From Parcubacteria group bacterium GW2011_GWA2_43_13 (GTDB lineage: Bacteria > Patescibacteriota > Patescibacteriia > UBA9629 > GWA2-43-13), in the NCBI GenBank assembly GCA_000999025.1, contig LCFM01000001.1, positions 1,198 to 65,197 on the forward strand: a stretch of DNA of 64,000 nt. The letters are read 5' to 3'. Below the pieces are notes generated by a model. The model was not told where the DNA came from, made no database searches, and saw only the letters and a list, made by a program, of their open reading frames with translations. Shown here in pieces: positions 6,009-63,991 of the stretch; position 1 is the first letter of the stretch; the number at the start of each line of letters is the position of its first letter. The position numbers and the translations under genes were made by a program.

Positions 6009-6009
6009 A

Positions 6010-11758: not shown

Positions 11759-11767
11759 ATTTTAAGT

Positions 11768-14158: not shown

Positions 14159-14298
14159 ATGTTGTTTTATATTTTTTTCACCTTCAGGAACAGTCCCCTT
14201 TTGCACGCGCCATTTTTTATTATCGAACAAGCGAGAGAAGTGGGAAAGCTACGCTTTCACATTTCCGAGCGAGTGAAGATAACACAGGGGTAATACCT

Positions 14299-16329
<2,031 letters not shown>

Positions 16330-20130: not shown

Positions 20131-20162
20131 ACAAAGCAATCCTAATCCGCCATCTGGCGGAA

Positions 20163-20234
20163 CAAATCTCATCCGAATCTACTAATACAACGACTGGATT
20201 CGTAGATTCGGATGTCATTCGCAGATTGGGATTG
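20163..20234. repeat. Family C element: CCGAATCTAC...GTAGATTCGG palindrome plus ATTCGTAGATT direct repeats
   Basis: Near-identical to the 5951-6008 element. Lies between pheS and pheT. Confidence 0.65.
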
Positions 20235-20239
20235 CCTCC

Positions 20240-21292
20240 TTAAAATTGTCGCACAAACTCAACATCTCCAGAATATCCTAATCGAATATCAGGAATCCCG
20301 TACGCAAGCATCATCATACGATCAATCCCCATGCCAAAAGCAAATCCGGAATATTTCCGCGAATCAACTTTCATATTTTTTAACACCACAGGGTGTACCA
20401 TACCGGCGCCTAACATTTCCACCCATCCGGTACGCTTGCACACAGAACATCCTCCATCTCTCCTGCCCCCCCCTTGGTAAGGAGGTTGAGTACTCCCCCC
20501 GCACATCATACAACTGATATCAACCTCAAACCCGGGTTCAACAAAGGGGAAATAACTCGGCCTCAAACGTATGGTTGTATCTTTCCCATACAACCCTTTC
20601 ATGGCCGCAGAAAGGCACCCCATTAAATCCGTAACGCGAATGCCTTTGTCTATCACCAAACCCTCAAGCTGAAAAAAATTACTTCCATGAGTCGCATCAG
20701 TCGCCTCATGCCGAAAAACCCTTCCGGGAACAATAAGCCGAACAGGCGGGGTTCGATGTTCCATGGCTCGAATTTGCACTGGCGACGTATGAGTGCGCAA
20801 CACAACGCTTTCCTCTTCTTTCCCATGCCGAACATAAAACGTATCCCACATATCGCGGGCAGGATGATCTTTAGGGATATTCAATGCAGAAAAATTATAA
20901 TACCCAAGCTCTATTTCCGGCCCTTCAACAACATCAAATCCCATCCCTAAAAAAACAGAAATCACCTGATCCATCACTTGATATAATGGGTGCTCATGCC
21001 CGCGTTCAGGAATACGGCCAGGCAAGGACATATCAATTCGGGCGTTCGCTCCGCGCGCATCGTGTGTTTTAAACAATTGCATCAATTCTTGTTTTATCGC
21101 ATTGGCTATAGGGCCGATCTCTTTTTTTTCTTCCACAGATAGACCTGCCAATTGCTTCATAAGAAGGGCAACTTTCCCTTTTCTTCCCACATACAACGAC
21201 CGCCACGCTTCACGCGCGCGGTTATCAGTTTCTTTGATGTTCTTAAAAGTGTCAGTTGCTTCTTTTTGAAGAGATAAAAACGCGTCTTTCAT
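20240..21292 (-). CDS. pheS: Phenylalanyl-tRNA synthetase alpha subunit
   Basis: Class II motifs (FRHEATDATH; GFAFGMGIDRMMM). Carries an in-frame family B repeat insertion (..CGGSTQPPYQGGGRRDGGCSVC..). Confidence 0.9.
   Translation of the reverse strand: MKDAFLSLQKEATDTFKNIKETDNRAREAWRSLYVGRKGKVALLMKQLAGLSVEEKKEIGPIANAIKQELMQLFKTHDARGANARIDMSLPGRIPERGHEHPLYQVMDQVISVFLGMGFDVVEGPEIELGYYNFSALNIPKDHPARDMWDTFYVRHGKEEESVVLRTHTSPVQIRAMEHRTPPVRLIVPGRVFRHEATDATHGSNFFQLEGLVIDKGIRVTDLMGCLSAAMKGLYGKDTTIRLRPSYFPFVEPGFEVDISCMMCGGSTQPPYQGGGRRDGGCSVCKRTGWVEMLGAGMVHPVVLKNMKVDSRKYSGFAFGMGIDRMMMLAYGIPDIRLGYSGDVEFVRQF
20459..20501. repeat. Family B hairpin repeat inside pheS (in frame)
   Basis: CCCCCCCCTTGGTAAGGAGG matches the 31160 and 49755 copies (CCTTGGTAAGGAGG). 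Confidence 0.6.
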
Positions 21293-21722: not shown

Positions 21723-21736
21723 ACATGACGATTATT

Positions 21737-21764
21737 GTAGAGACGGGGTTAACCCCGTCTCTAC
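21737..21764. repeat. Family A palindromic repeat, canonical copy
   Basis: GTAGAGACGGGGTTAACCCCGTCTCTAC, a perfect 12-4-12 palindrome. Confidence 0.85.
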
Positions 21765-21773
21765 AATAGTGTG

Positions 21774-27894: not shown

Positions 27895-27922
27895 GTAGAG
27901 ACGTATAGCAATACGTCTCTAC
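27895..27922. repeat. Family A repeat, variant loop
   Basis: GTAGAGACGTATAGCAATACGTCTCTAC. Confidence 0.75.
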
Positions 27923-30900: not shown

Positions 30901-31095
30901 GGCAGACGCTTTGTCAGTAAAGGTAAGCGCGAGAATGCGATCGCTTGAAATTTTTTTTTCTTCAATCAGCCATGCGATACGACGGGTAATAACTGTTGTT
31001 TTTCCGGTTCCTGCGCCAGCGATAATCAGCACAGGGCCATCTTGCGCAGTGACTGCCTGAAGTTGCTCATTGTTTAATCCTTCTAAATGATTCAT
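27919..31095 (-). CDS. UvrD/PcrA-family helicase fused to a C-terminal RecB-type PD-(D/E)xK nuclease (AddA-like)
   Basis: N-terminal AGAGTGKT Walker A; DExQD (ILVDEFQDTN); motif III VVGDDDQAIYKFRGA. C-terminal nuclease IDYKTG plus a Cys cluster (CQWCPFKKMC). Three in-frame family A inserts. Confidence 0.85.
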   Translation of the reverse strand: MNHLEGLNNEQLQAVTAQDGPVLIIAGAGTGKTTVITRRIAWLIEEKKISSDRILALTFTDKASAEMEDRVAGLLTQGYYDLEISTFHSFCEKIIRRFGIEIGLPADAKLLNETDQWLLLRNHLDDLPLSYYKPKGNPTKFLRDLLKHFSRAKDELITPERYLEYADSIRLNKDRAEAGDESKSDRVQEIAHIYHSYQQLLLTENVMDFGDLIVYAVQLLQQRPRVRAYYQQKFHYILVDEFQDTNWAQYELTKLLVGVETRQGRVSNGARDETPQGGVSAGREKNIMVVGDDDQAIYKFRGASVSNILSFKKDFPESEEIVLTQNYRSKQNILDSAYTLIQYNNPDRLEAQLKSSGRRDKEDESVETLMPRRDGVNPVSTGVDNRHMPISKKLISQSHEIGIIKHIHCAKLDDEIGSVMALLKQRHDTGVAWKDMALLVRANDSADPFCRACGSEQIPYQFWAQRGLYRTPVILDIFAYINLLDNYHDAQSCYRLLTTPVYAIRYEDISCIQQYMKRKAVSFYEALKDAQLIPSLSDEARERIQKLTHLISRHTALAREYSAGQIIDDFMQESGYMKVLSDRANSPASQEQQRAIDDLWCVGQFYQRVAEFEQSHDDTHIKHFTDEIELERGSGNDGRFEQLELRDEDAVNILTVHSAKGLEFDTVCVVNMVEQKFPTSNRGDSIPLPDDLIHETLPTGDEHLQEERRLCYVAMTRAKNALYFTSADDYGGVRKKKISRFVVEANIVANILSLPSVETGLTPSLRSEGGIDPHNPQSDTRNIDISKYRNIYALSHTKLQSFATCPLKYKYEHILKVPVVEGTPMFSFGTTMHSLLQKAFFLVQDRASRIGQTDLFGNSISETGSTIVLEEKELLKFYDQCWIDDWYTSKTQRDEYDKKGKEIIASLIERYKGGWPVPIALEKMFEFPVMNNGKRYALWGRIDRIDPIVIDGHEGVEIIDYKTGTPKGDKMSIEDKHQLLLYQIAVQQVLGYVPLRLTYHYLEDDSMVSFLGGTDDLEQLQLNIKQQIQHMEESAFSATPGYHCQWCPFKKMCDFSDA
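28800..28827. repeat. Family A repeat inside the helicase gene (encodes SVETGLTPSL)
   Basis: GTAGAGACGGGGTTAACCCCGTCTCTAC. Confidence 0.85.
29954..30000. repeat. Family A repeat plus partial copy inside the helicase gene (encodes RRDGVNPVSTGVDNRH)
   Basis: Full 28-mer followed by GCGTCTCTAC. Confidence 0.85.
30254..30322. repeat. Two variant family A units inside the helicase gene, between motifs II and III
   Basis: GCAGAGACGCCCCCCTGGGGCGTCTC and TTAGAGACGCGCCCCTGGCGCGTCTCTAC. Confidence 0.75.
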
Positions 31096-31156: not shown

Positions 31157-31270
31157 CCTCTCCCTCCCCCCTCCTTGGTAAGGAGGAGGAATAACGCACG
31201 GCCTCTCTCCTTTACAAAGGAAAAAGATAACGACGACCTCTCTCCTTGACAAGGAGTGGGTAGGTGAGGT
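31157..31270. repeat. Cluster of about 3 family B hairpin units
   Basis: CCCTCCTTGGTAAGGAGGAGG .. CTCTCCTTTACAAAGGAAAAAG .. CTCTCCTTGACAAGGAGTGGG. Confidence 0.7.
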
Positions 31271-48736: not shown

Positions 48737-48783
48737 AAACTATCGCTCCCTCTCCTTGATAAGAAGAGGGTTGGGGTGAGGGT
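48737..48783. repeat. Family B hairpin unit
   Basis: CTCCCTCTCCTTGATAAGAAGAGGGTTGGGGTGAGGG. Confidence 0.65.
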
Positions 48784-49749: not shown

Positions 49750-49860
49750 GTAAGACCTCCCCTCTCCTTGGTAAGGAGGGGAGACGCGTCGGTTCCCTCT
49801 CTTTTAAGAAGGAGAGGGTTAGGGTGAGGTATCCCCTCCTTTTTAAGGAGGGGGGAGAAG
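49750..49860. repeat. Cluster of about 3 family B hairpin units upstream of smpB
   Basis: CTCTCCTTGGTAAGGAGGGGAG .. CTCTCTTTTAAGAAGGAGAGGG .. CCCCTCCTTTTTAAGGAGGGGGG. Confidence 0.7.
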
Positions 49861-50725: not shown

Positions 50726-50808
50726 AAAGGCGACACCAATACGCGAATGTCACACGAATGACACAAATCTTCGCGTCATTCGCGTGTATTCGTGTATTGA
50801 TGTCTCAT
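50726..50808. repeat. About 85-nt leader element upstream of rplT (copy 1 of 2)
   Basis: Near-identical to 51024-51102: ..GCGACACC.ATAC.C.AATG.CACA.ATGACACAAAT.TTCGCGTCATTCGCGTGTATTCGTGTATTG. Confidence 0.7.
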
Positions 50809-50815
50809 TATATTA

Positions 50816-51023: not shown

Positions 51024-51102
51024 TACGCATTAAATGCGACACCGATACACAAATGACACAAATATTCGCGTCATTCGCGTGTATTCGTGTATTGGTATCG
51101 CA
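51024..51102. repeat. About 85-nt leader element upstream of rpmI (copy 2 of 2)
   Basis: See 50726-50808. Confidence 0.7.
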
Positions 51103-51657: not shown

Positions 51658-51953
51658 CTCGATTCTTGATCATTTGAAGTAGGAATATCCTCCCACCCTA
51701 TTGATCGTAAAAAATGGTGTAATTGATGTTTTAATTGCCGTCTCCCTTTACTAGTTTTAAGAAATTGCTCCCGAACAACCGCATCAATTTTCAATATATA
51801 CACTTCGTAGTATACCAATTTCAATGGTCTTCGCCCCTTCGTTGATATAACCATGCCTTGGTTGTGAACATGGACACGATTTTTGAGATCTGATGAACTC
51901 CCAATATAGAAACCATTATCCTTTGTGCTATGAAGAATATACACATAATACAT
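51654..51953 (-). CDS. Stand-alone GIY-YIG domain protein
   Basis: YYVYILHSTKDNGFYIGSSSDLKNRVHVHN matches the GIY..YIG..R..H.N pattern; 4-nt overlap with infC. Confidence 0.7.
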   Translation of the reverse strand: MYYVYILHSTKDNGFYIGSSSDLKNRVHVHNQGMVISTKGRRPLKLVYYEVYILKIDAVVREQFLKTSKGRRQLKHQLHHFLRSIGWEDIPTSNDQESR

Positions 51954-52690
51954 AGCATTCTATCTATTGGCACGGGGACCTGGCACTCCGCTTCGCTTCG
52001 GCCTGGGCATGGCACTTCTCCCTTCTTCAGGTGCTCACACTATAATAACCTACTTGTGGCTTGCCGCGGTCTTGGCCCCGTCACTTCGTTCGCTCATGCT
52101 CACTTCGGACAGGGCACGACACTCGCATATATTATTCAAACTTCAACGCTCTATCAAATGCTTCTGGCTTGCCACGACCGAGCCATCGAAAATGGCGAGT
52201 GTCGTGGAGATGGCGGGAATTTCACCCGCGTCTAAACAGTGTTTCATTTTTGGTGTGCCATCAGAGAGCATCTTTAAAATTTTGCGGAAAATGGTTAAAG
52301 ATGTTCAAAAAAACATTTCCGCTATCACCGATCAAGGGGTCAAAAGCGCCACGATGACAAGCACTTTCCAATCACCATGGTTGGCGCCAGTGATTCGCTA
52401 TGGTGACTCGCGAAGCTGACGGCATGTCACTGTTTAGGCGACAGCTGGTGCGAATGAAAAACCAGCAAAAGCTGATTTCACGCGCGCGACAAGATTCTTG
52501 GCATTTGTCGGCTTGGTTAAGAGATTAACGAGCGATCAACCACGCTCGAATGGCCAAAATATGAAACAATCTGCTTATCGAATAATACCATCCCCATGTT
52601 TGTGGGCTATTCGTAAAGATTCGTGATGTATTCGTGGCGAAGTATAATAAAAAACAACCCTGCCGTCAAGCCCATCGAGCAAAAAATAGG

Positions 52691-53323
52691 TTATTCCAAA
52701 CTAAACTCAACTAACTCTTTTTTTATCTTTTTCTCACTCACCTCAACCCCGGGCATAAAAACCACCTTTTCATCATATTTGACATCATCAAAATACGCTA
52801 ATTGTATTCTAAACAATTTACTGTTAAATTGTGTGCCAAATATGGATTCAGCTTGTTGTACAATCTCCTGCAACGAATGATAACCTTTCATAATAAAACG
52901 CAAATCAACATAATCCTTCCACTTTGCCCGCCGACCTAAAGCGTATGCTTTCATCGCGGCCAACGTGACTAAATTTGGCATTTTGATTATACCCTCAAAA
53001 TCTTCCGTGTATGCTATATCAAATGGATAATGATAAAACGTAACTTTTACATCCCCCACTAAAAAGGTTAATTCTCCTGATTTATCAACAATAACGTGGC
53101 TTATTTTTACAACTCGTTCAATTTTTTTCTTAAGAGCGGATGTCCTAAACTCCTTGTTTGAAAATAAATCAAAATCAATTGATTCTCTATGACCAATGTG
53201 TAAAGCGATAGCAGTACCTCCAACCAACCCATATTCTTTCCTCATGTACTTTAACAACGGCAATAATGCTACCTGTTCGTCTGTGAGTATTTCCTTATGC
53301 ATATTTATTAAAATACAAGGCAA
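52691..53323 (-). CDS. AbiEii/AbiGii-family nucleotidyltransferase (DUF1814-like), module 2
   Basis: GLVGGTAIALHIGHRESIDFDLF corresponds to the GGTAL...R.S.D(I/L)D(F/L) hallmark of AbiEii NTase toxins. Confidence 0.65.
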   Translation of the reverse strand: MPCILINMHKEILTDEQVALLPLLKYMRKEYGLVGGTAIALHIGHRESIDFDLFSNKEFRTSALKKKIERVVKISHVIVDKSGELTFLVGDVKVTFYHYPFDIAYTEDFEGIIKMPNLVTLAAMKAYALGRRAKWKDYVDLRFIMKGYHSLQEIVQQAESIFGTQFNSKLFRIQLAYFDDVKYDEKVVFMPGVEVSEKKIKKELVEFSLE

Positions 53324-53570
53324 AGTAATGCTTTACTTCCGCCCGATAATTTTGCCGACCCATTTTTGAGGGTTTGGATTTTTCACGAAAAATTTTAGCA
53401 ACTTTTTTGATGCCTAAAATCTTAATTAATGTCTGCACGTCATCCCAATCCCCATAATTCAGAGTTGCCTCCACAATGGACTCTGCCTTTAGTTTATCGT
53501 AATCCTTTACCCACCAAATAAGATGTTTTCTTTCTTTAATAAAATCATGAATGGTCATAGTCAAATACAT
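53295..53570 (-). CDS. Small partner protein of NTase module 2 (candidate antitoxin)
   Basis: 91 aa; overlaps both flanking genes; weak similarity to the 54176..54406 product (W..., .DWDD/.YWDT..L..IL motifs). Confidence 0.4.
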   Translation of the reverse strand: MYLTMTIHDFIKERKHLIWWVKDYDKLKAESIVEATLNYGDWDDVQTLIKILGIKKVAKIFREKSKPSKMGRQNYRAEVKHYFALYFNKYA

Positions 53571-54258
53571 CCTTTTCTAATTTTTCTGCTTCTTTCAAAA
53601 AAAATTTCTTCCAATGATTATGATTAAACGGTTGTACCATGCGCGGATAATCTTTCAATTTTTGCGCCTGAATAAACTGTGTCCCCAATTGAAGCGGGTC
53701 AATATGCCAGTCGAATTTTATCTTTGCTTTCTTCGTAATATCTGAAAGTGAAAATGGATACGTCTGCAAAATAAAAAAAAGATCAATAAAATCCCTGGCC
53801 GTTAAGCGCTGGTATATGGTAAAAAGTTTATTCACCGCTAAATCTATAATACTCTCAACCCGTATCCCCTCCTGCTGGAGAGGATTTTCAATCGGAGAAA
53901 ACGGGAAATAGGTGAATTCCATTTTGAGTATTTCACTGTTTTTAAGCGTCAAAAAATAGATATGACGGTTAAAGGTATGCTGAAAATCAATGTCAGTGAT
54001 TGCAAGTTCTTTTCGTAAAGATGTCAAAAAAACATGGATCATCTCAGGGTCAACTTCTTCTTGTGAGAACAAATCAAGATCTTCGGAAAACCGATGATGC
54101 AAATAAAACCCTGCCAAAGCGGTACCGCCGGTTAAAACAAACTGGTCATTTATATCTTTAGCTTGAGATATTTTTTTAATGACTTTTCTTTGGGATGCGG
54201 TAAGAATTTTCTTTGTCATGGATAAAAAGGTTAAGAAACTCCCGCCGGTGAGGATCAA
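53545..54258 (-). CDS. AbiEii/AbiGii-family nucleotidyltransferase (DUF1814-like), module 1
   Basis: LTGGTALAGFYLHHRFSEDLDLF. The likely true start is MTKKILT at 54219. Confidence 0.65.
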   Translation of the reverse strand: MILTGGSFLTFLSMTKKILTASQRKVIKKISQAKDINDQFVLTGGTALAGFYLHHRFSEDLDLFSQEEVDPEMIHVFLTSLRKELAITDIDFQHTFNRHIYFLTLKNSEILKMEFTYFPFSPIENPLQQEGIRVESIIDLAVNKLFTIYQRLTARDFIDLFFILQTYPFSLSDITKKAKIKFDWHIDPLQLGTQFIQAQKLKDYPRMVQPFNHNHWKKFFLKEAEKLEKDVFDYDHS

Positions 54259-54406
54259 TGTTCAGTGTATCCCAGTACTTGCGAAGTTCTTGCATAGAGA
54301 GCTTTTCTTTGCCAATGCCAAAATTAATTAGCTGTTCAAGTCGCCATTTAGCATACTGTTTTTTACCTTTTTTCAGCGCTGTTGTATCTGTAGACCAATT
54401 GTACAT
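54176..54406 (-). CDS. Small partner protein of NTase module 1 (candidate antitoxin)
   Basis: 76 aa, first gene of the apparent four-gene operon; overlaps the NTase gene. Confidence 0.4.
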   Translation of the reverse strand: MYNWSTDTTALKKGKKQYAKWRLEQLINFGIGKEKLSMQELRKYWDTLNIDPHRREFLNLFIHDKENSYRIPKKSH

Positions 54407-54420
54407 AAAATGTATTCTAA

Positions 54421-54452
54421 ACCACCCCTATCCCCTCCTTTTAGAGGAAGGA
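54421..54452. repeat. Family B hairpin in the 5' UTR of the NTase operon
   Basis: CCCCTATCCCCTCCTTTTAGAGGAAGG. Confidence 0.6.
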
Positions 54453-54463
54453 TATTTACCTGT

Positions 54464-54493
54464 ATTATAGCATAGAATTGAAATTTTAGACAA
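54464..54493 (-). promoter_or_regulatory. Sigma70-type promoter for the small-protein/NTase operon
   Basis: Minus strand: TTGTCT, 18 nt, TGcTATAAT (extended -10), about 55 nt upstream of the ATG at 54406. Confidence 0.55.
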
Positions 54494-54539
54494 TAACGTA
54501 TTATCAAAAATAGGGCTTATTTTAGCTAATCTCTGGTTG

Positions 54540-54568
54540 TTGACAATAATTACAAGATATGGTACTAT
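54540..54568 (+). promoter_or_regulatory. Sigma70-type promoter firing rightward toward the GC-rich island
   Basis: TTGACA, 17 nt, TGgTACTAT (extended -10). Confidence 0.55.
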
Positions 54569-54762
54569 GGCATGTTTTCTGAAAACTGAAGTTGAGAGTT
54601 GATCAAACGTGCGGTGTAAGGCCTTGTGTCGTACATCGCGCGCTCTGATGAGCTCTTAATACATGTAAGAATAGTACAAATCACGAAAAAACTGATACAT
54701 CCAAGATATTAAGCGATTGTGAGTTGCGTGACTTGTACTTATTTTCATTCAATTGGTGGGCG

Positions 54763-54852
54763 ACCTCACCCTAACCCTCTCCTTATAAAGGAGAGGGAAA
54801 CGAATCCCCCCTTAAGAGGGGAACGACGCGCCTCCTTCCTTGAGGAAGGTGG
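54763..54852. repeat. Cluster of about 3 family B hairpin units in the long leader of the GC-rich island
   Basis: CCCTCTCCTTATAAAGGAGAGGG .. CCCCCCTTAAGAGGGG .. CCTCCTTCCTTGAGGAAGGTGG. Confidence 0.7.
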
Positions 54853-55140
54853 CACCCGCAGGGTGACGGAAGGTGTTACCACTAATTGACTTGCCCAGTC
54901 CTCGTGACTGGGGCTCACTTCATATCTGATAATACACAACCGATATTCGTATCATTTGCATGAATTTGTATATTTGCGTCGCATTTGTCAGATAAAAAGT
55001 GGGACTTTCGTGAGCGTGGGTATGTTGCCTGCGCTTAATGCGTCGTTCATCGACAACGAGTTGAGGTTACGTTGTCCCCTACCTCAACTACACTTCACAA
55101 CGCATCACGCAAGTGATGCGCTCTCGTAAGGAGCTTCAAA

Positions 55141-56262
55141 ATGCGTCAAAAACTGAGTTTTCAACTCTACCTCATCAAGACCGGTGACGAGAGGAAAGAC
55201 AAAGGAAACGGAACTGCGGAAGCGTTGCTCGTCGAAATCACGGACCTTGACCAAACGGGTCCGTATGAGTTGTACTGCGAGAATGGGATCATGGCCGAAG
55301 GCGACCGCGCAGCGATCCAGAAATTTCTCGAGGCGGAGGTTGCCAAGCAACCGACGGCCGAAGAAGAGCTTCTTGCCGAGACGCAAGACGAGCTCGCCAC
55401 AAGGACGAGCGAGCTACGTGCTGTCCAGGGGACGGCACGGCAGATCGCCGGCGAGCGCGACGTGGCGGTTGCCCAGCGGGATGAATCCCGCCTCGGGCAC
55501 GATCTGATCGTGAACAAGCTCGCCGAAGTCGCGAAAGCGAATGGCGAGCTCCAGGAGACGTTCGAGCAAACGTACGAGAAGCTCACCGACGCTCAGGCCG
55601 ACGTGTTGTCGGCGAAAAGCGAGCTCAGGACCGCGAACGATGCCTTGGCTTGGATGCGTGCGCGGATGACAAACTTTCTTGGCATGATCGGCCTCACGGC
55701 CAATCTCATCAACGACTCCAACGCAGATCATAACGTAACAGCAAGGATCTACGAAATCAAACAACATACGGCCTGGTACTGCGGTGTCACTGGTCTCGTC
55801 GTCGGCGGGATCATCGTCGGCGCCATCTGGCTCTTCACGACGGCGTTCGACGGCTGTGCGGGGAAACCCAACAACCAGCCGCCGACACTGTCGGTTACGC
55901 CGACAGCGACGACGGTCGAGATCGGGAAGGTCGCGACGGTGTCCTACGATGTCACCGACCCTGACGACAAGAAGCATGACGTCGAGGTTGTGACCAGTCC
56001 CAAAATCGGGAAGGTCACAGTCGACCAGGAATCGAAGACTCTGACGTACACCTCCGATGGCATCAGCCTCGGGGATGATACGTTCCAGGTCGTCGCAAAA
56101 GACAAAGAGTCCACCTCACCCGCTATTGACGTCAACGTTACCGTCAACGCCGCTCCGGCGCCCACCCCACCCGCCACGACTGGCGGCGGTGGGACGACAC
56201 CGCTGGCCGACGACTGGGATAAGGTAACGATCCCCGACGTGTCGGGGATCAAAGGACGCTAA
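55141..56262 (+). CDS. High-GC island gene 1: coiled-coil / single-TM / cadherin-like (bacterial Ig-like) domain protein
   Basis: AAGGAG 8 nt upstream of ATG. N-terminal coiled coil, TM (GLVVGGIIVGAIWLF), then VTDPDDKKHDVEV..TYTSDGISLGDDTFQVVAKDKESTSPAIDVNVTVN (cadherin/VCBS-like). About 60% GC against ~40% background. Confidence 0.7.
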   Translation: MRQKLSFQLYLIKTGDERKDKGNGTAEALLVEITDLDQTGPYELYCENGIMAEGDRAAIQKFLEAEVAKQPTAEEELLAETQDELATRTSELRAVQGTARQIAGERDVAVAQRDESRLGHDLIVNKLAEVAKANGELQETFEQTYEKLTDAQADVLSAKSELRTANDALAWMRARMTNFLGMIGLTANLINDSNADHNVTARIYEIKQHTAWYCGVTGLVVGGIIVGAIWLFTTAFDGCAGKPNNQPPTLSVTPTATTVEIGKVATVSYDVTDPDDKKHDVEVVTSPKIGKVTVDQESKTLTYTSDGISLGDDTFQVVAKDKESTSPAIDVNVTVNAAPAPTPPATTGGGGTTPLADDWDKVTIPDVSGIKGR

Positions 56263-56328
56263 CAACCAAGGCAATGGCGTGGGGGAGGAGAAATACAACC
56301 CCACGCACTCTCTTAAGGAGTTCGACGA

Positions 56329-57315
56329 ATGAAACGAATTTTCGTTCCGCTCTTCGTGTTTGGAATCGTGAGTGCCTCCTATGGTCAAGTGGACCCGGAG
56401 GCACGGTCGCGCACGGTGGTGTTGAAACAAGAGCTCGCAAAGCAAGGTGGCGCTCTGAACAACCTCGATACGCGGCTCACCGCCGTCGAGGGAAAACCGG
56501 CGCCGAAGACGCCAAGTTCAGGGCACGACGTTACAGCGCGACAAATGGCGTTGTGGCTCGCAGAACGAGCGTTTGTGCGGGATGGCTATACACCCGAAGC
56601 CGCACAGGCCGAAGCCGCCCGTGTGATCACGGGGGGACTCGGGAAAAACGCTCGTCTCCGCGAGTTGCGCGCGTATGCCACGGCATACGCACTCCGCGAC
56701 CCATCGAAACTCATCGGCGACGTGGAGCGCAACGTAAACACAAAAATCGTCGGGTTGAAAACCGACGTCGACGCGCTTGCCGGACGCGTCGGAAAGAACG
56801 AAACGACCCTGACGGAACAGGGCACCAGCCTCGGCGTCGTCGAGACAGACTTGAAAGCCCTGAAATACGGGCTCAAGGCCACGATCAACGATGCGATCAC
56901 GGCGAAGTGCGTCGGCTATTACACGAAAGCCGACGCCGACGCCGCGGTCACGAAGGCCATCTTCGAAGCAGTTACAAAGCTACAGACAGATGGTCTCATG
57001 ACCAGTGCCAAGGAGGTTCGTGAGTTCGTCGGCGACGCTCTCGCGCCATACGCGAAGGGCGCCGAGCTCGCGGTAGTGCTCAAGCAAACCCTCGCGCTCA
57101 CGAGCGAACTGATCGGATTCGTCCCCCACGTCAAGGTAGACGTAAGGGGATCCGACGATCACTACCGCGACGCGCGAATCGGCGAGCTGACCGCCATCGA
57201 AAACGCCCTCAAGGCGGCGATGGCACCGGACAAGCCGGCGGAGGCGACGACGCCTTCCGCCGCGGACGATCACGAACACGAAGCCAACCTCGAATTCGAC
57301 TTCATCACCCAGTAG
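56329..57315 (+). CDS. High-GC island gene 2: secreted coiled-coil protein
   Basis: AAGGAG RBS; signal peptide MKRIFVPLFVFGIVSASYG; long alpha-helical/coiled-coil body. Confidence 0.65.
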   Translation: MKRIFVPLFVFGIVSASYGQVDPEARSRTVVLKQELAKQGGALNNLDTRLTAVEGKPAPKTPSSGHDVTARQMALWLAERAFVRDGYTPEAAQAEAARVITGGLGKNARLRELRAYATAYALRDPSKLIGDVERNVNTKIVGLKTDVDALAGRVGKNETTLTEQGTSLGVVETDLKALKYGLKATINDAITAKCVGYYTKADADAAVTKAIFEAVTKLQTDGLMTSAKEVREFVGDALAPYAKGAELAVVLKQTLALTSELIGFVPHVKVDVRGSDDHYRDARIGELTAIENALKAAMAPDKPAEATTPSAADDHEHEANLEFDFITQ

Positions 57316-57336
57316 AGACCTGGGTGTATGCTACAC

Positions 57337-57397
57337 ATCGGATTGGAATGGAATCATACACAACGCTGTATTGAGACCACCAATCCGATTTTTTTAT
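57337..57397 (+). terminator. Terminator-like hairpin after island gene 2
   Basis: ATCGGATTGG...CCAATCCGAT followed by TTTTTTT. Confidence 0.5.
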
Positions 57398-57410
57398 TTA
57401 CGAAAAACAT

Positions 57411-57440
57411 CCCCCTACCCTCTCCTTGGCAAGGAGAGAA
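57411..57440. repeat. Family B hairpin unit at the right edge of the GC island
   Basis: CCCCCTACCCTCTCCTTGGCAAGGAGAGAA. Confidence 0.65.
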
Positions 57441-57460
57441 AAATTCTAAAATGTCTCTCC

Positions 57461-57721
57461 TTATTTCCTATAAACATCTTTGCGATGACCAATAGTGACA
57501 AACAATGCAACGCCACTCTCTATAAAAACAAAAATTACTCGATACTCTCGAGTAATACGAAAAGAAAAGGCCATGTGCTAATCTACTAATTTTTTAACAT
57601 GCAACCGCGAATCACGCCAATCGGCACAAAAAATATCTTCTTGTTTGTGGTACAATCCCTGAATATGCGCAGGAAGTTTATGAAATCTCTTACGAAATTC
57701 ATCGGCATACAGAACTTTCAT
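57461..57721 (-). pseudogene. RelE/ParE-family toxin gene interrupted by one in-frame amber codon
   Basis: MKVLYADEFRKRFHKLPAHIQGLYHKQEDIFCADWRDSRLHVKKLVD, then TAG, then HMAFSFRITREYRVIFVFIESGVALFVTIGHRKDVYRK. The halves match the N- and C-terminal parts of RelE/ParE; ATGA overlap with the antitoxin gene. Confidence 0.6.
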
Positions 57722-57948
57722 AACCTCGAAGATACTTTACCATTGTGCCAATCTTGTATACCTCGCTTAAACGATGACTTTAACGCCTGTGGTTGATCGT
57801 AATTGGCAAAAGCATCTTTAGGAAATTCTGAAGCGATCCCTTCTAACACGCGCACACTAAAATCATGCAAAGAAAGACCATATGATAAAGCTAACCCCTG
57901 CAATCGCCGAGCAGATTTAGGAGGTAATTTTATTGTTACTGTTTCCAT
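57718..57948 (-). CDS. Ribbon-helix-helix (CopG/ParD-like) antitoxin
   Basis: METVTIKLPPKSARRLQGLALSYGLSLHDFSVRVLEGI: beta strand plus two helices; upstream of and translationally coupled to the toxin remnant. Confidence 0.6.
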   Translation of the reverse strand: METVTIKLPPKSARRLQGLALSYGLSLHDFSVRVLEGIASEFPKDAFANYDQPQALKSSFKRGIQDWHNGKVSSRL

Positions 57949-58016
57949 ACATCTTTTACTATACTACACAAATACTCCCTATGACAATAGTCGCAAGCAT
58001 TACACAAAAGACGCTC

Positions 58017-58043
58017 CACCGGAGCGTCTCTACAATATCATCA
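58017..58043. repeat. Family A variant just downstream of the giant gene
   Basis: AAAGACGCTCCACCGGAGCGTCTCTAC. Confidence 0.65.
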
Positions 58044-58045
58044 TG

Positions 58046-61000
58046 TTACGCGGCTTTGGAAAGATGTTTTGCAAGTTCTTGTTCAACAGTATCGAACACT
58101 AATTTGCTTTTTGGATCCAGATGCTCCACTATACCGGCAAGAACGCGCCAGCTATGCCATGACTGCTGATTTAATATATTCTTATTAAGCATATCTTGGG
58201 CAGAAAGCCCTAAAATATTTCTCACCCCGATTGCCGCATTTTTCCGCAATTTCGTGTCATCAGACAGTAAATTATTTATTAAACTTTGCGCGTTACCTTT
58301 ATATTTTCCCAACGCATCAACTGAATCGATTGACGTATTCATATACTCAACCAACTCGGACTGTTTCACCGCTCCAACAACCTCTTGAAATGAGGCATCA
58401 TCATGAATAATAGTATGAGCAGAATCAAGCCACTCCGGGGTAATAATTTTTTTAGCATCGTAGGTGAAAAGTTCTGCAATGGCTTTACCGTCATCATCGG
58501 AGACGGGGCGACGCCCCGTCTCTACAACACCAGCAATGGCACTGCTGGTTTCGTGATGCGCATTTGGGATGACATCAACAGTGCCGATGTCTTTATCAGT
58601 TCCTTTGATAGGATGATCTTTGAGCCATTCGGTATAATCGTGCAGTTCGTGACCACGCGCGCCGTTGGGCAGAACGTGACGGATTGAAATAATTTTTTCA
58701 TTGCCCTTGGGGAGTTGCTCTAATACTACATCAGGTGTTTGCGGGTTGCTTGCGCCAAATTTGACGGCAATAATCTCTGGTGGTTGAGACCCCACCCCAC
58801 CCTCCCCTTGTAAAGGGGAGGGAGACGACAATTCACCATGTGAAAAACGGGCGATGTCGTGCGGATCAGTAACAGGTCGCACCCATGCGTGATGATCATG
58901 CATTGTAATATGGTTCCATGGTCCGCCTTCATCTTTAGAAAGATGCTCAAGTGTTTTTGAAATAGTTCCAACATCAGCATCTTGATGAATTGCATGGAAT
59001 GAAGTTAAAATATTTGCTTCTTCTGCGCCGATACTTCCTGATACCGGACCTGGGATATCGCCAGTTGCGCCAATGCTTTCGCGCAGGGCTTCTAATGCTT
59101 CAGACCTCACCCCGCCCTCTCCTTGGAAAGGAGAGGTGGACGATAACTCCCCTTCACCCTCTCTGACCTCAAGAAGGAGGACATGCGCGTCGGTGTTGGG
59201 TAATTGCAATTCATGGGTATGGCCATCAACAATCATGCCTTGCGGAGAAGGGACCGCAAGCGGTTCAAACCTCACCCTCCCCTCTCCTTTTAAAGGGGAG
59301 GGTAACGACGACGACACACCCTCTGTCCTCCTCTCAAGAGGGGGGATCGTCGCCCCCCTTCCTTGAGGAAGGGTTGGGGAAGGTGTTGCGTCATGCGATT
59401 TCGAAAAATCATATTCATGGGAAATATCAGACGGACGCTCAAACACAGCGCCTGCAGTATGGGTTTCAAACGGAGCATACGCGCCACGCGTTGGGTCATA
59501 TGTATATTCACCAACCGCCCATGTTCCTTGCGGTGTTTTATGCAACCAATACGCAGGATTCTCGCCAGCTCCGGCAACGCCGGTATCCAGTACACGCACC
59601 TCATGACCTGCATTATCAACATACCCATAATCGCGCGCAATCAAATGCGCCAGATTGCCACGATCTCCTGTTCCATAACGCTGTGAAAAATATGAAAACG
59701 CATCATGGTTTTGCCCGAGTTGACGATGTAACACATGCTCAACACCCTCCCCCCTGCCAACCACAGCGCTCATTGGAAGATGCCCTGCATCAGGCAAAGG
59801 AACAGGGCCATGAGGCGTGGCTCCACCACCATCTGCCGCATGCGCGACTTCGCGCAAATGAGCAACCTCACCCAACAAAAACGCTCCTATAATCGCTCCG
59901 CCAACTTTATACACTAACCTACGATTTCTATTTCTAATATCTAACACATTATTACCTTGAGCATCATACATTCCGCTTCGCGTCCGTTCTGCTTGCCGAA
60001 ACTCGGTATATTCAGCGTGAAGTGATCCGCCTGTCTGTTGAATAGTTTCAAATTTTTGAGGAATGCTTTTTTCACCTGTTCTCAATCCATCCGGCCTCAC
60101 GCGCGGAGGTTGGGCATTCGTGCTCCACAATGGTCGCTCCCATTCTACCAAAAGTTTTAAATGCATTACTTTAGTATACATTTTTTTAAACCGTTCATAT
60201 TGATGGCTAAATTCATGATGATTTTTTAAATTTTCAATATATGGCTGGGTTTCTGCAAGTACTTTCAGCATTGGCTGCAATTGGGCATCAATATTCGCAA
60301 CGTCGGAAATGGTTAATTCGTTCTCTATTTTTTGCAATGTCTTTTCGTATTCCCCCAACTTACCCGATTCAAGCGCTTTGAGCGATTGCTCAACACCTGT
60401 CTCTGGCGCATTCCTGCCTGTGCGCAATGCAAACCCCCACCTGCCATGAGGCCCGCCCCATGGCCGACCAATACCACCTGAATCAGCTAATGCTCCTCCC
60501 ATTTTCCATCCGCTGTACGCGCCTACTGCCGCCGCCCCCGCTACCCCAAAAGTGCGCAAAAACGATAATCCCAACCCAACGCCTAATGCTGTAGCGCCTG
60601 CAAACGCTTTATCACGTGGCGAAGTGTTATGCCATAAAATTCCGCGGTTGCGATCTTGCTTTGTAAATCCAAGCGGCCGAGTAGTGCGCATGCCATCCGC
60701 AACTGTGCCAAAAAATTCATGATACCCATGTTGCGCGCCCTGACTGCGCTGATCCATTGCCTCTTGATACCGTGTTTTTGCCTCATCATCCATTGAATAA
60801 TACAATGCAAATCGCATGGCGCGGGATTGAATATCTTCTGCAGATAATCGTTGCGCCTCTTCTAATGCGTTATTTTCAGCAGTCAGCGCGCCTAAAAACC
60901 GATTATAATATTCATCAACTCCTAACGGGTCTTGAATCCCCTGCTCTGCTCTGATACGATTGCGGTTTGTGTTTTCAACATAATTGGCAATAGAAAATGA

Positions 61001-63991
61001 AAACGAGTGCAACAGTTGCCCGCGCGCGGCGTCGTAATTTTCTTCTTTCCACTTATTCACGTTTCTGCGCTGTTTGTTATGATGATACAAACCATCAATG
61101 ACTCGCGCGCCAGTAAGAACGCCGACAGCAAGAACAGGATTCCATGATAACGCAAGCGCGCTTAACCCCCACCAGCCCACGGCTCTACCAAGTATACCGC
61201 CAACTTTTGACCGAGAACGCTCCCTGCGCGTTGACGCTTCGGCATATCCTTTACCTGTTTGCGCATCCTGATATGGCTGTCCTAATTTTTTGCCCAGCAT
61301 GGCATTTTCTAAAACCTGCCGTTTTGCAGAATAAAACAAATCATGGCAAAAATCTTCTGTCAGCCGCGCTTCTTGCGGAATGTTTTGCGCATTCGGGCCA
61401 AGTTGTTCAATCATTTTTTGAATCACTTCCTGTTCCCGCGTTCCTAAATGCCGCTCCCCTGCCTCATGACCTGCTTGAGGGCCGGTGTTTTGCAAGCTTC
61501 CAAACCATGTTTCTTTTGCCAATACCACATCTGACACTTCTTGAATCAATTGCGCGTAGTTCTGCTGAACCTCTTTGTGATCAAGCATTTTAATGATTTC
61601 CGGATTATCAATGCCCAATGCAAGCGCCTTTCTTCTGCCTTCTTGCACTTCATCCGCGCTCACATTGATCTTATCAATTTTATCCTTCATTGCTTTTTCA
61701 ATCTTTTCTTTTTCTTCCCTTGCTTTTTTTTGTTCTGGTGTTTCCTTTGGTTGTTTATCTGGTTGATTTGGTTGCGGTTGTTCTGGAGTAGTGGGTTGCT
61801 GTTCTTGCGGTGCCACAACAACGGCAGAAAGTAAATCAAGCCGAGCGCGAACAAAACGTCTATTATTGCTACCGGTTGTAAATTCAAAATCACCAAGCCG
61901 ATAGCCCAATCCATGCGCAATTACCCGAAACGCGGAAAATCTATCTTGATCTTGCCGGTTAAATGTCTGACGTTGAAAACGCCACGCTAATTGAAAATGG
62001 CTTCGATTTTGTCTAATTGCGCCTTGAATTTGCGCAATCATACCTGCGCGGGCCTCCTCTCTCCGTCGTTCATTGCGGATACTGTTGAAAAAATTTTGTG
62101 CCGATGATTGCTGATCGCGCCAGTAGCGCTCTTCTTCTGTTAATTCGCGTTCTTCCTCTTCAATCGGTTCAAGTACTTCTGGTTCTTGTTCTGGAGGTTG
62201 AGATTCTTGTGGTTGCGTCTCTTGCGATGGTGTCTGTTCTGGCTCTTCTGCAACACCCAAAACAAGCGGTTCTAAAAACGCAACTGCTACCCTGCGATTA
62301 GTGGAATCTATGTGAAACGCGCTTAACTGAAAACCAAGCTCTTGCGCAATCATGCGATGCGCGGCAAACCGCTCTTGATCCCGATCTGTCAATGTTTGCC
62401 TTTCTCTGCCCAATGTGAGATGAAATTCAGTGCCACCTGCGTCAATTACTCTCTGTAATTGATCGCGCATTTTATTTTTAATGGTTTCCCTTTTTTCTTT
62501 TGCCTGCCTGTCCCAAAATCCTTGAGCCAATACTTCTTGATCCTGCCCATCTATCTCGCCACTTTCATCCGATTCTGTTGTCGGCGTTTCAGTTGGAGTT
62601 GATGATGTAGTCGGCACAGATTCTGTTGTGTCTGTATCGCCAGATTGATCTTCAACAGGAGGTTCTTGTGTTAAACTCGTGGGCTGTCCTTTTGGATTTT
62701 CCACGTTTCCTGGAGATCCTTCTTTAGGAAGAGTTGAATATACCTCATCCATCTCTGCCGCCCGTGCAATCCCCGAAATGTCTACCCCTTTTTCAAGCGC
62801 TCGCATAATACGAAAATAGGCGCGCAGTATCTCTTTGCTTTTATTAATAAATTGTGTGCCATCTGAAGGAATAGACAAATCCTGTAATAATTCACAAGCC
62901 CTGCCCACTCGCTCATACGCATGATCAATCCACTGCATAAGCAATGTATAACGAACAGATGGCTCATTTTCTTTATTTATGCGTTCAATAATTGGACGAT
63001 AACGTCCAGTAAGGATATAAACCTCTGGTAATGTGGTCAGGTCAACATTCCTCTGATCTTTAGGAATTGGCTTTTTTTCAGCATCCAATGATAGTATATC
63101 TTCTAACTCAACTAATTCCTTTTTCCATATTTCAAAATATGAAGAAAGATTATTCCTGTCTTTCCCTATAATATCATCTTTGAATTTCACGATATCAGTA
63201 CGCGTTGGTGGCTTTTCCTGATCAATCAGCCGCCGCGCCCTATCAATAAAATCCTGATGATACGCTGGATCAATAGGAGGGAGACGATACTCTTTGAACA
63301 GTTCTCTTTTTGTATCCGGTATCTGTATATCAGGATGTTCTTGCGCAAAAATATTTTTAAATATTTTCCTAAAATCAATAGAGCCGCCATTTCGAAATTC
63401 GCCAACATGTGCTGGCACTTGCTCAAGTAATGTATTGATCTGTTCAGGGTGTTGTTCCATCTCATCCCAAAGATATCGCAGTTCATTCACAGACATTGGG
63501 TTCACCCGTAACTTGCGATTATTTTTGTCATCAGATGCCACATACGTGGCAATCCCGCCAAATCCTATCAATGTTACCCATAACTGTTGAGAGGTTTGTA
63601 CTTTTTTTAATTCTCTATCAAAATCTTCTGCGAGATTGTATCTCCGGTCAGAAAAATTAAATGTAATACTATGCAACTCATTCATCTTGTTTTCAACAAC
63701 AGTGCGAATTGATAGCGGCAATTCCTCCAAATAACCACGACCGCCCCAAATCACTTCTGTCATGATTTTTACAAAATCTTCTCGCGTGTATTCAATGTCG
63801 CCATCTCGTGATGAAACCTTCACAACTCCTTCAAATACATCAAGCGCCGCAATAATCTCTGCCATTGACTTGGCTCGCGCAAGGCGTTGTTCCCAGATCA
63901 AAGGTTGCGGGGGGAGTTGTTTTCCTATTTCTTCTACGCTCGGCGGAATGGGTGGGGTTATTTCTTTACCTTCATCCGATGCTTCTGGCAC
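58046..63991 (-). CDS. Giant (at least 1981 aa) membrane-associated protein of unknown function; may extend past the window end
   Basis: Tandem duplicated ~80-aa module with acidic/Pro-rich linkers; central TM helices; C-terminal His-rich region; helical repeats at the C-terminus. Contains four in-frame repeat insertions (one family A, three family B). Confidence 0.7.
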   Translation of the reverse strand: MPEASDEGKEITPPIPPSVEEIGKQLPPQPLIWEQRLARAKSMAEIIAALDVFEGVVKVSSRDGDIEYTREDFVKIMTEVIWGGRGYLEELPLSIRTVVENKMNELHSITFNFSDRRYNLAEDFDRELKKVQTSQQLWVTLIGFGGIATYVASDDKNNRKLRVNPMSVNELRYLWDEMEQHPEQINTLLEQVPAHVGEFRNGGSIDFRKIFKNIFAQEHPDIQIPDTKRELFKEYRLPPIDPAYHQDFIDRARRLIDQEKPPTRTDIVKFKDDIIGKDRNNLSSYFEIWKKELVELEDILSLDAEKKPIPKDQRNVDLTTLPEVYILTGRYRPIIERINKENEPSVRYTLLMQWIDHAYERVGRACELLQDLSIPSDGTQFINKSKEILRAYFRIMRALEKGVDISGIARAAEMDEVYSTLPKEGSPGNVENPKGQPTSLTQEPPVEDQSGDTDTTESVPTTSSTPTETPTTESDESGEIDGQDQEVLAQGFWDRQAKEKRETIKNKMRDQLQRVIDAGGTEFHLTLGRERQTLTDRDQERFAAHRMIAQELGFQLSAFHIDSTNRRVAVAFLEPLVLGVAEEPEQTPSQETQPQESQPPEQEPEVLEPIEEEERELTEEERYWRDQQSSAQNFFNSIRNERRREEARAGMIAQIQGAIRQNRSHFQLAWRFQRQTFNRQDQDRFSAFRVIAHGLGYRLGDFEFTTGSNNRRFVRARLDLLSAVVVAPQEQQPTTPEQPQPNQPDKQPKETPEQKKAREEKEKIEKAMKDKIDKINVSADEVQEGRRKALALGIDNPEIIKMLDHKEVQQNYAQLIQEVSDVVLAKETWFGSLQNTGPQAGHEAGERHLGTREQEVIQKMIEQLGPNAQNIPQEARLTEDFCHDLFYSAKRQVLENAMLGKKLGQPYQDAQTGKGYAEASTRRERSRSKVGGILGRAVGWWGLSALALSWNPVLAVGVLTGARVIDGLYHHNKQRRNVNKWKEENYDAARGQLLHSFSFSIANYVENTNRNRIRAEQGIQDPLGVDEYYNRFLGALTAENNALEEAQRLSAEDIQSRAMRFALYYSMDDEAKTRYQEAMDQRSQGAQHGYHEFFGTVADGMRTTRPLGFTKQDRNRGILWHNTSPRDKAFAGATALGVGLGLSFLRTFGVAGAAAVGAYSGWKMGGALADSGGIGRPWGGPHGRWGFALRTGRNAPETGVEQSLKALESGKLGEYEKTLQKIENELTISDVANIDAQLQPMLKVLAETQPYIENLKNHHEFSHQYERFKKMYTKVMHLKLLVEWERPLWSTNAQPPRVRPDGLRTGEKSIPQKFETIQQTGGSLHAEYTEFRQAERTRSGMYDAQGNNVLDIRNRNRRLVYKVGGAIIGAFLLGEVAHLREVAHAADGGGATPHGPVPLPDAGHLPMSAVVGRGEGVEHVLHRQLGQNHDAFSYFSQRYGTGDRGNLAHLIARDYGYVDNAGHEVRVLDTGVAGAGENPAYWLHKTPQGTWAVGEYTYDPTRGAYAPFETHTAGAVFERPSDISHEYDFSKSHDATPSPTLPQGRGATIPPLERRTEGVSSSLPSPLKGEGRVRFEPLAVPSPQGMIVDGHTHELQLPNTDAHVLLLEVREGEGELSSTSPFQGEGGVRSEALEALRESIGATGDIPGPVSGSIGAEEANILTSFHAIHQDADVGTISKTLEHLSKDEGGPWNHITMHDHHAWVRPVTDPHDIARFSHGELSSPSPLQGEGGVGSQPPEIIAVKFGASNPQTPDVVLEQLPKGNEKIISIRHVLPNGARGHELHDYTEWLKDHPIKGTDKDIGTVDVIPNAHHETSSAIAGVVETGRRPVSDDDGKAIAELFTYDAKKIITPEWLDSAHTIIHDDASFQEVVGAVKQSELVEYMNTSIDSVDALGKYKGNAQSLINNLLSDDTKLRKNAAIGVRNILGLSAQDMLNKNILNQQSWHSWRVLAGIVEHLDPKSKLVFDTVEQELAKHLSKAA
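58500..58526. repeat. Family A variant inside the giant gene (encodes VVETGRRPVSD)
   Basis: GGAGACGGGGCGACGCCCCGTCTCTAC. Confidence 0.75.
58787..58826. repeat. Family B hairpin inside the giant gene (encodes ..SPLQGEGG..)
   Basis: CCCCACCCTCCCCTTGTAAAGGGGAGGGAGACG. Confidence 0.7.
59104..59188. repeat. Family B hairpins inside the giant gene (encode ..SPFQGEGGVRSE..)
   Basis: CCCTCTCCTTGGAAAGGAGAGG .. CCTCAAGAAGGAGG. Confidence 0.7.
59270..59382. repeat. Family B hairpins inside the giant gene (encode ..SPLKGEGRVRFEPL..)
   Basis: CCCTCCCCTCTCCTTTTAAAGGGGAGGG .. CCTCTCAAGAGGGGGG .. CCCCCCTTCCTTGAGGAAGGG. Confidence 0.7.

Follow-up and report, generated by a model that had tools for sequence, protein, structure and literature searches.

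A GC-rich two-gene operon with excess transcript folding in Candidatus Jacksonbacteria: probably not a simple recent import

Composition and coding content of the block

The window analyzed here (64,000 nt of contig LCFM01000001.1 from Parcubacteria group bacterium GW2011_GWA2_43_13, an ultra-small groundwater bacterium) contains a block at 55141-57315 with approximately 60% GC and a GC content at third codon positions (GC3) of 0.73, compared to 42-44% GC for the surrounding chromosome of Candidatus Jacksonbacteria, a member of the candidate phyla radiation (CPR). The block carries two plus-strand open reading frames (ORFs), g1 (373 aa, 55141..56262) and g2 (328 aa, 56329..57315), and this g1-g2 operon was interpreted in an earlier note on the same DNA as a recent acquisition from a high-GC donor. 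The jump in base composition described in that note was borne out by sliding-window analysis, in which the GC content of 300-nt windows was 0.33-0.39 up to 54650, 0.46-0.49 over the hairpin-rich leader, and 0.54-0.63 at 55100-57350 before returning to 0.37 by 57350-57650, amounting to a rise from 0.35-0.40 to 0.54-0.63 between ~55100 and ~57350. No 1-kb bin of the window exceeded 0.52 GC outside the block (window mean ~0.43).

The accompanying shift in codon usage was also found, with GC at codon positions 1/2/3 of 0.61/0.43/0.74 for g1 and 0.65/0.44/0.72 for g2 (GC3 0.72-0.74) compared to GC3 values of 0.33-0.42 in seven host genes. The coding-type position pattern GC3>GC1>GC2 persisted along the called frames of both genes, and both were preceded by the AAGGAG sites of the earlier note, which lie 7-8 nt ahead of the ATG. 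On these sequence features, g1 and g2 are considered to be real plus-strand protein genes. The 2.2-kb coding block differed at three positions between the strain contig L001 and the window, and all copies of the block were 99.6-100% identical to each other.

The abrupt change in composition, together with several short contigs that break in or near the block, would fit a chimeric assembly in which a fragment of a high-GC organism was joined into a CPR contig. This was examined at the level of assembled contigs: at least 14 independent ones, some of them 100 kb long, share the same block junctions and together cover several samples, years, and assemblers. Contigs of up to 100 kb (NCBI GCA_001818105/135, GCA_003485785, ENA megahit, and Logan) that came from separate samples and assemblers agreed with the 7 kb at 52001-59000 at 99.7-100% identity. 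With this recurrence of the junctions, a chimera is very unlikely, its probability being close to nil; an analogous arrangement in two marine assemblies and the fit of promoter, ribosome-binding sites, and terminator to the genes also count against it.

Predicted proteins

The g1 product has the architecture of a transmembrane (TM) protein and comprises an N-terminal region (residues 1-60), a coiled coil (~73-190), a TM helix (211-238), an immunoglobulin-like (Ig) domain (245-336), and a Pro/Thr/Gly-rich tail, with a predicted N-in, C-out topology; the coiled coil and TM helix agree with the architecture given in the earlier note. Single-sequence AlphaFold models were poor overall (predicted local distance difference test, pLDDT, of 56 for g1 and 48 for g2) and only the g1 Ig domain was usable; the AlphaFold 2 (AF2) model of g1 displayed long helices at ~53-239 including the TM segment and an eight-strand beta domain at 249-336 with pLDDT of 70-86. 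An exhaustive phmmer search of 1.84 billion representative proteins covered g1 and gave 177 matches, all to residues ~243-350, with E-values (E) down to 1.8e-19. Eight of the eight top matches checked carried 3-11 Big_9/Cadherin_4/Cadherin_5 repeats in large proteins, consistent with the cadherin/VCBS-like domain that the earlier note had proposed and with the Ig-like fold of the AF2 model. The Pfam Big_9 profile matched over its full length (1-89) with 23.5 bits compared to a cut-off of 23.6 (E 1.1e-4), the NCBIfam family tand_rpt_95 matched at E 8e-5 with a score far under its cut-off, and Foldseek aligned the domain with lambda gpV Ig-like, Rib, S-layer, and adhesin Ig domains in the PDB (E 2e-5 to 1e-3). 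Residues 243-350 are homologous to the repeats of Big_9/tandem-95 cadherin-like adhesins, including the acidic DVTDPDD motif, but g1 differs from these adhesins in holding one copy of the domain rather than a tandem array and in its joining to a TM helix and a cytoplasmic coiled coil without homologues. No homologue of residues 1-240 was found in the 1.84 billion representatives, nor of any part outside the Ig domain among 5.8 billion proteins beyond the gene's own cluster, and the N-terminus had no match to PDB sequences at E <= 1.

The g2 product is predicted to be a secreted, all-helical protein of 31 kDa, with a signal peptide at residues 1-19 (MKRIFVPLFVFGIVSASYG) followed by an all-helical, coiled-coil-like region, as anticipated in the earlier note. 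The search of 5.8 billion proteins gave no homologue of g2 outside its own species cluster, and no Pfam, NCBIfam, PHROGs, PADLOC, or PDB match of weight was obtained (for PDB sequences, none at E <= 1). In public data, both proteins were present only as their own 90% clusters with the members KKS94435.1/KKS94436.1 (UV70_C0001G0049/50, Parcubacteria group) and OGY71604.1/OGY73702.1 (Candidatus Jacksonbacteria). No similarity was detected between g1 and g2, no paralogue of either was found in the window, and neither contained an S-layer or wall-anchoring domain (SLH, CWB2, and similar) in Pfam or NCBIfam. No mention of the two proteins was found in the literature, in which almost nothing is published on Jacksonbacteria.

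Conservation in a marine relative

A 39.9-kb contig of a marine Jacksonbacterium (L031) was found via its IF3 gene as anchor, and an independent marine assembly with 98% identity (L019) confirmed the left junction. The two lineages are anciently diverged, with amino acid identities to the window of 79% for IF3, 62% for IleRS, and 51-79% among orthologues, and third-position identity at conserved fourfold residues of 0.27-0.49; synonymous sites are close to saturation. In window orientation, the order of L031 is IF3, transfer-messenger RNA (tmRNA), promoter, a 270-nt leader, a GC-rich block (0.59-0.68 GC in a 0.40 GC genome), a strong terminator, and a convergent gene for a giant protein of 1928 aa. 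The L031 block encodes g1' (a 145-aa TM protein) and g2' (a 382-aa coiled-coil protein with a signal peptide). The L031 promoter (TTGACA-17-TATAAT, also with TG) aligned in register with that of the window, the promoter and downstream sequence aligned at 76% identity, and the terminator lay in the same place and was stronger than that of the window. The giant protein genes converge on the operon in both lineages (in the window a minus-strand ORF of 2158 aa at 58046-63991 and beyond; in L031 at 712-6498). Both products have TM segments and no Pfam domain, and they are collinear weak homologues over ~160 aa only (E 5e-7).

All four block genes (g1, g2, g1', and g2') had GC3 of 0.72-0.74 compared to 0.25-0.42 for host genes, near-identical third-position base frequencies, and shared preferences for CTC, ACG, GCC/GCG, ATC, and GAC, and the GC-rich sequence was confined in both lineages to the two coding sequences and their spacer. 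Alignment and gene order showed the promoter, leader hairpins, gene architecture, position, and GC3 to be conserved in this distant relative.

Promoter, leader RNA, and terminator

A sigma-70-type promoter was identified at 54540..54568 on the plus strand (TTGACA-17 nt-TACTAT with the TG of an extended -10; 10/12 matches), in line with the strong rightward promoter reported in the earlier note. The following 5' untranslated region (UTR), or leader, of about 570-576 nt (54575..55140, plus strand) was highly structured (fold z -8.6) and held no credible ORF, so that the long untranslated leader of that note was upheld. At the other end of the operon, its terminator-like hairpin corresponds to an intrinsic terminator at 57337..57396 on the plus strand, with a 10-bp closing stem (GGAUUGG.../...CCAAUCC) followed by UUUUUUUAUUU (stem 57337-57389, z -4.2).

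Two leader hairpins were conserved between the lineages. Hairpin 1 (~75 nt, 54588..54662, plus strand) was recovered by a covariance model (R1) built only from the L031/L019 hairpin and scanned against both strands of the window, giving one significant match (38.3 bits, E 4.7e-8) with a runner-up at E 0.18 (a hairpin at 21733-21772). Comparison of its 21 consensus pairs with L031 displayed 17 unchanged, one one-sided, three compensatory, and no broken pairs. Hairpin 2 (CUGAUAA/UUGUCAG; 54926..55010, plus strand) was identified by alignment (blastn collinear at 54985-55007) and is followed by AAAGUGGGAYUUYC; its loop is ~46 nt longer in the window than in L031, and one C-G to U-A compensatory pair was judged by eye. 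The match of a model made from the relative only and the compensatory changes support the regulatory RNA that the earlier note had suspected in the leader, and the two hairpins plus the AAAGUGGGA motif are proposed as a new candidate cis-regulatory RNA. Model R1 gave no match in other CPR loci, the hairpin pattern was absent from IMG/VR, and the Rfam scan suggested in the earlier note identified no known family, the tmRNA being the sole Rfam 15 match in the window and the leader region giving sub-threshold, chance-level matches only. A hammerhead-like CUGAUGAG in hairpin 1 was not conserved in L031, and the reading as a known RNA was dropped.

Between the two hairpins lies a GC-rich hairpin cluster with an 11-bp closing stem (54748..54895, plus strand; fold z -5.4) that belongs to a dispersed-repeat family and is missing from the 270-nt leader of L031; it is an insertion of that repeat into the leader and specific to this lineage. 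The sole cluster of differences between strain L001 and the window fell in this hairpin-repeat cluster (11 substitutions in 60 nt, 54801-54860). The family consists of a GC-rich hairpin CCCTCTCCTTnnnAAGGAGAGGG, often with GGGTTAGGGTGAGG flanks, in intergenic clusters, with 10 matches in the window compared to 0 expected. The earlier note had the island bracketed by hairpin clusters of this family (its family B), and copies were indeed present at 54769-54800 inside the leader and at 57412..57443 just past the terminator, but the family is dispersed and not specific to the block. Further copies were located at 31167-31260, 48748-48770, and 49760-49854, and three lay in frame inside the giant ORF (58800-58822, 59115-59137, and 59280-59302, minus strand), where they encode motifs such as SPLQGEGGVGS in a manner resembling Rickettsia palindromic elements. 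The repeat was absent from the marine relative. Judged by this distribution, the flanking hairpins are not a signature of insertion.

Folding excess of the transcript

Dinucleotide shuffles of 1-kb pieces gave folding z-scores of -8.2 for g1, -9.0 for g2, and -5.2 for L031 g2', compared to +0.9 to -2.7 for host coding segments and +0.5 to -2.3 for eleven ORFs of genuinely high-GC loci; repeat shuffles by a separate procedure of our own gave z -6.1 and -12.1. Under synonymous-codon permutation, which keeps the protein sequence and the codon usage, the excess was z -5.4 with 12% extra stability for g1, z -7.4 with 19% for g2, and z -6.4 with 13% for L031 g2', compared to z +1.1 to -3.3 (-2 to +9% extra stability) in 16 host coding segments and z +0.4 to -3.6 in five high-GC control coding segments. 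The excess persisted when codons were permuted within 30-codon blocks (z -3.5 for g1, -7.8 for g2, and -6.0 for L031 g2') and was greater on the sense than on the antisense strand. High-GC codon periodicity or Ala-richness as the cause was ruled out by the high-GC controls and the synonymous and local-block permutations, and excess base pairing is written into the synonymous sites of the transcript. The 200-nt windows across 54500-57500 had a mean z of -3.1 compared to a background of -0.48 +/- 0.93, with limits that matched promoter to terminator, and in L031 the operon mean was z -2.2 against a background of -0.22. Folding of the AbiEii, IF3, and SmpB genes was ordinary.

Folding along the whole transcript, the lack of protein conservation between the lineages, and several long ORFs in other frames of the block would each be expected if the locus encoded a large structured non-coding RNA whose ORFs are by-products of high GC depleting stop codons. 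This alternative is considered highly improbable, as the GC3>GC1>GC2 pattern follows the called frames, the AAGGAG sites are rightly spaced, a TM helix and signal peptides are encoded in both lineages, the two-gene architecture is repeated in L031, and the Ig domain of g1 has homologues at E 1.8e-19.

A folding excess unique in the genome was rejected, since other windows, namely those holding intergenic hairpin repeats, terminators, or the tmRNA, score about as high. In the 800-nt windows 20001-20800 and 11001-11800 (plus strand), the folding excess was 17-18%, as large as that of the operon; an imperfect hairpin was observed at 20172-20240 between pheT and pheS. An unrelated 709-kb contig (CAYVLY010000001.1, labelled Gammaproteobacteria) with a median GC of 0.44 contained blocks of up to 0.74 GC at ~1-1100, 2760-4220, and 11170-15270. 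Three ORFs taken from these blocks were without folding excess (z +0.5 to -0.7), so a GC-rich block in a genome of lower GC does not necessarily carry many hairpins.

Origin of the block

The composition and codon usage of the block are unlike those of the host, and the locus shares with horizontally acquired islands a sharp GC and codon discontinuity, ORFan cargo, and a plastic region with toxin-antitoxin modules near ssrA. It differs from such islands in that its GC content is higher than that of the host rather than lower, in lacking an integrase, att repeats, and a donor, in its conservation in an anciently diverged relative, and in boundaries that coincide with coding sequences. Pfam scans of the neighbors detected no integrase, transposase, or other mobility gene (AbiEii, IF3, and similar only), the only flanking repeats were those of the dispersed hairpin family with no att-type direct repeats, and the block lies on the 5' side of ssrA rather than at a tRNA or tmRNA 3' end. 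The search for a donor by protein homology returned self-clusters only among 5.8 billion proteins and generic Ig matches among 1.84 billion, and in L031/L019 the orthologous site is not empty and holds an equivalent GC-rich operon. A one-off recent import is inadequate because the same promoter, leader, and architecture occur at the orthologous site with the same GC3 in an anciently diverged relative, and because the GC-rich stretch coincides with the coding sequences and has no donor homologue. The acquisition from a high-GC donor advanced in the earlier note was not sustained in its simple form, and from the sequence comparisons the block is probably not a simple recent gene import.

Contigs of a sister species (L029, L046, and L049; L20 identical and IF3 98% identical to the window) carried one AbiEii module compared to two in the window, and, in the same neighborhood, an unrelated gene pair with GC of 0.47-0.60 encoding a 389-aa Zn-ribbon protein and a 264-aa vWA-like protein (DxSxS ... 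SDGEDN) in the orientation opposite to that of the operon (L046 1-2059; also in L029, L049, and L050). All sister-species contigs end in this GC-elevated pair, short of the operon site; the end of the L029 contig was set aside as an inverted-duplication artefact. Judged from these contigs, the neighborhood is plastic.

A foreign origin is compatible with these data if the conserved promoter and leader are a fixed platform at a variable locus, into which each lineage independently swapped a cassette from high-GC donors, possibly the hosts of the episymbionts. Such repeated cassette replacement could produce the observed pattern and is a serious rival, regarded as possible if somewhat doubtful. 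The foreign-type codon usage of the block genes, the proteins that are unrelated between lineages under a conserved leader, and the plasticity of the locus (two AbiEii modules compared to one, and another GC-elevated pair in the sister species) all agree with it, and for groundwater Patescibacteria both genomic islands and transfers between phyla are on record (PMC12455944). It is weakened by the lack of homologues in the collections searched for g2 and for g1 outside the Ig domain, though the home aquifer is very deeply sequenced, and by the lack of an integrase, transposase, or att site. Two donors would also need to have supplied the same architecture, GC3 of 0.72-0.74, CTC/ACG preferences, and boundaries at start and stop codons, and ordinary high-GC genes do not have the synonymous-site folding excess.

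Genome-wide secondary structure is typical of single-stranded replicons. The diffuse folding excess in g1, g2, L031 g2', and the 389-aa gene of the sister species, whatever their orientation or protein type, the small membrane and secreted proteins encoded, and the nearby tmRNA could accordingly reflect remnants of an integrated element that is single-stranded for part of its time (a ssDNA/ssRNA, i.e., single-stranded DNA or RNA, replicon that is filamentous-phage-like). This origin is judged quite unlikely, since no replication, morphogenesis, or integration gene was found, the block lies on the 5' side of ssrA and not at its 3' end, and the promoter and leader are native in composition and conserved like host RNA genes. 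A phage or viral origin was rejected, with no tblastn match in 50,697 phage genomes, no IMG/VR relative, and PHROGs matches only at E >= 0.02.

Tentatively preferred here is an old envelope operon, conserved in the lineage and evolving fast, whose transcript is under selection for extensive structure; high GC would be either the means to this structure or its by-product. The synteny with L031, the shared GC3 and codon preferences, the conserved promoter and leader hairpins, the confinement of GC-rich sequence to the genes, the folding excess, and the missing donor speak for it. Several observations weigh against it. The folding excess is matched in the genome by windows that contain intergenic hairpin repeats, terminators, or tmRNA. 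The pairs g1/g1' and g2/g2' are without detectable similarity (Smith-Waterman z < 1), which leaves position and architecture as the only basis for calling the coding parts orthologous, and the comparison comprises two lineages and one sister species that is uninformative at the site. In the sister species, the 389-aa gene has a synonymous-site folding z of -6.6, and this gene pair is more readily explained by a foreign-DNA hot spot, or by hairpins generated through a host-wide process, than by selection specific to the operon. Finally, the small populations of symbionts make it difficult to see how selection could be strong enough to maintain synonymous sites by the hundreds.

Proposed expression and role of the operon

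Under selection for mRNA structure in a conserved envelope operon, the sigma-70 promoter would drive a long 5' UTR with two conserved hairpins and a species-specific inserted hairpin-repeat cluster, and the intrinsic terminator would close the unit beside the convergent gene for a giant, putative envelope protein. The g1 protein may act as a bitopic membrane anchor that places its coiled coil in the cytoplasm and its single cadherin-like Ig domain outside the cell, and g2 may be its secreted coiled-coil partner. The high GC content would be held in place by selection for structured mRNA, and this structure might prolong the life of the message or keep it under tight regulation in a tiny cell that grows slowly. 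Together, g1 and g2 could make up a surface module, abundant and fast-evolving, that serves envelope structure or attachment, and the adhesion or host-interaction role raised in the earlier note would be plausible.

By analogy, the operon appears functionally to resemble genes for S-layer and major surface proteins, which are known for strong promoters and stabilized mRNAs (PMC8056022). Shared features include a strong promoter, a long structured 5' UTR, a canonical Shine-Dalgarno sequence, a signal peptide, a strong terminator, and rapid divergence of sequence among relatives. The operon differs from them in lacking an S-layer or wall-anchoring domain, in the 31-kDa helical nature of g2, and in structure and GC enrichment that run through the coding regions and not just the leader.

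GC-rich structural RNA genes in AT-rich genomes have reportedly been described by Klein, Misulovin and Eddy in 2002, and genome-scale ordered RNA structure of ssRNA viruses is said to have been reported by Simmonds and co-workers. Both have in common with the operon a local GC excess and folding beyond shuffled controls along the whole transcript, and both differ from it in that the operon transcript is protein-coding, carries its signal at synonymous sites, and belongs to no Rfam family. In a stronger form of the preferred interpretation, considered unlikely, RNA structure along the whole transcript was itself the target of selection, which drove the operon to ~60% GC and kept it there in a genome of 40-44% GC; the operon would be a structured-RNA gene that also codes, with a new conserved leader motif. 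If this were true, the role of the RNA beyond encoding may include extreme longevity, resistance to the many toxin RNases of the cell, or export, and compositional islands of this kind would be wrongly attributed to horizontal transfer. Recent transfer is commonly regarded as proven by atypical GC, and here RNA-structure selection or another locus-specific force would, if confirmed, mimic it; in ultra-small CPR cells, the operon would then also provide a way into the expression of fast-evolving surface proteins, the likeliest mediators of host attachment.

Genomic context

The remainder of the window is ordinary CPR chromosome with genes for GatB, ThyX, GyrB, PheST, an AddA-like helicase, MetRS, TGT, RecO, IleRS, SmpB, L20, L35, and IF3, almost all on the minus strand. 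The tmRNA gene (52202-52595, minus strand; Rfam RF00023, 66 bits) was missed by ARAGORN and is divergent from the operon, which lies 2.5 kb away on its 5' side. Two tandem AbiEii modules of type IV toxin-antitoxin systems occupy 52691-54406 on the minus strand, each with a small upstream partner gene. A role of the operon in anti-phage defense was rejected, with no PADLOC match for g1, g2, g1', g2', or the sister-species genes. An integron cassette array was also rejected, as no tyrosine recombinase was present in the window or L031 and the flanking hairpins are a genome-wide repeat, with no formal attC model run. The same applied to a diversity-generating retroelement target, with no reverse transcriptase domain in the 32 larger ORFs scanned and, for a template/variable pair, no long near-identical repeat in 54000-58200.

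Several minor observations were made in the surroundings of the operon. A 35-nt promoter stretch (54452-54486) is kept ahead of whichever AbiEii module comes last, and GC is also raised (0.52) in the 250 nt past the tmRNA 3' end (51950-52200). GC skew of the plus strand is negative across the whole window and nearly all genes are on the minus strand; operon transcription would be head-on to replication if the skew marks the leading strand. In the Rifle genome, the giant protein gene is followed by a gene whose product has a length of at least 1668 aa. No sequence, not even that of the giant protein itself, was matched when the C-terminal 700 aa of the giant protein served as query in a word-index search. 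A second hairpin family (CGTAGAGACGGGGttaaCCCCGTCTCTACG; TAGAGACGCGCCaggGGCGCGTCTCTA) with 10-13-bp perfect stems was observed at ~29953-29982 and 30294-30320, inside the housekeeping coding sequence of the AddA-like helicase-nuclease (27919-31095, minus strand); the hairpin at 21733-21772, the runner-up of model R1, resembles this family. Near-identical repeats of ~70 nt (cgacaccaatacgcgaatgtcacac...cattcgcgtgtattcgtgtattg) lie 3' of the L20 and L35 genes (50730-50810 and 51035-51100); they constitute a different family, and similar 'cattcg...attcgt' strings are present in intergenic DNA of L031.

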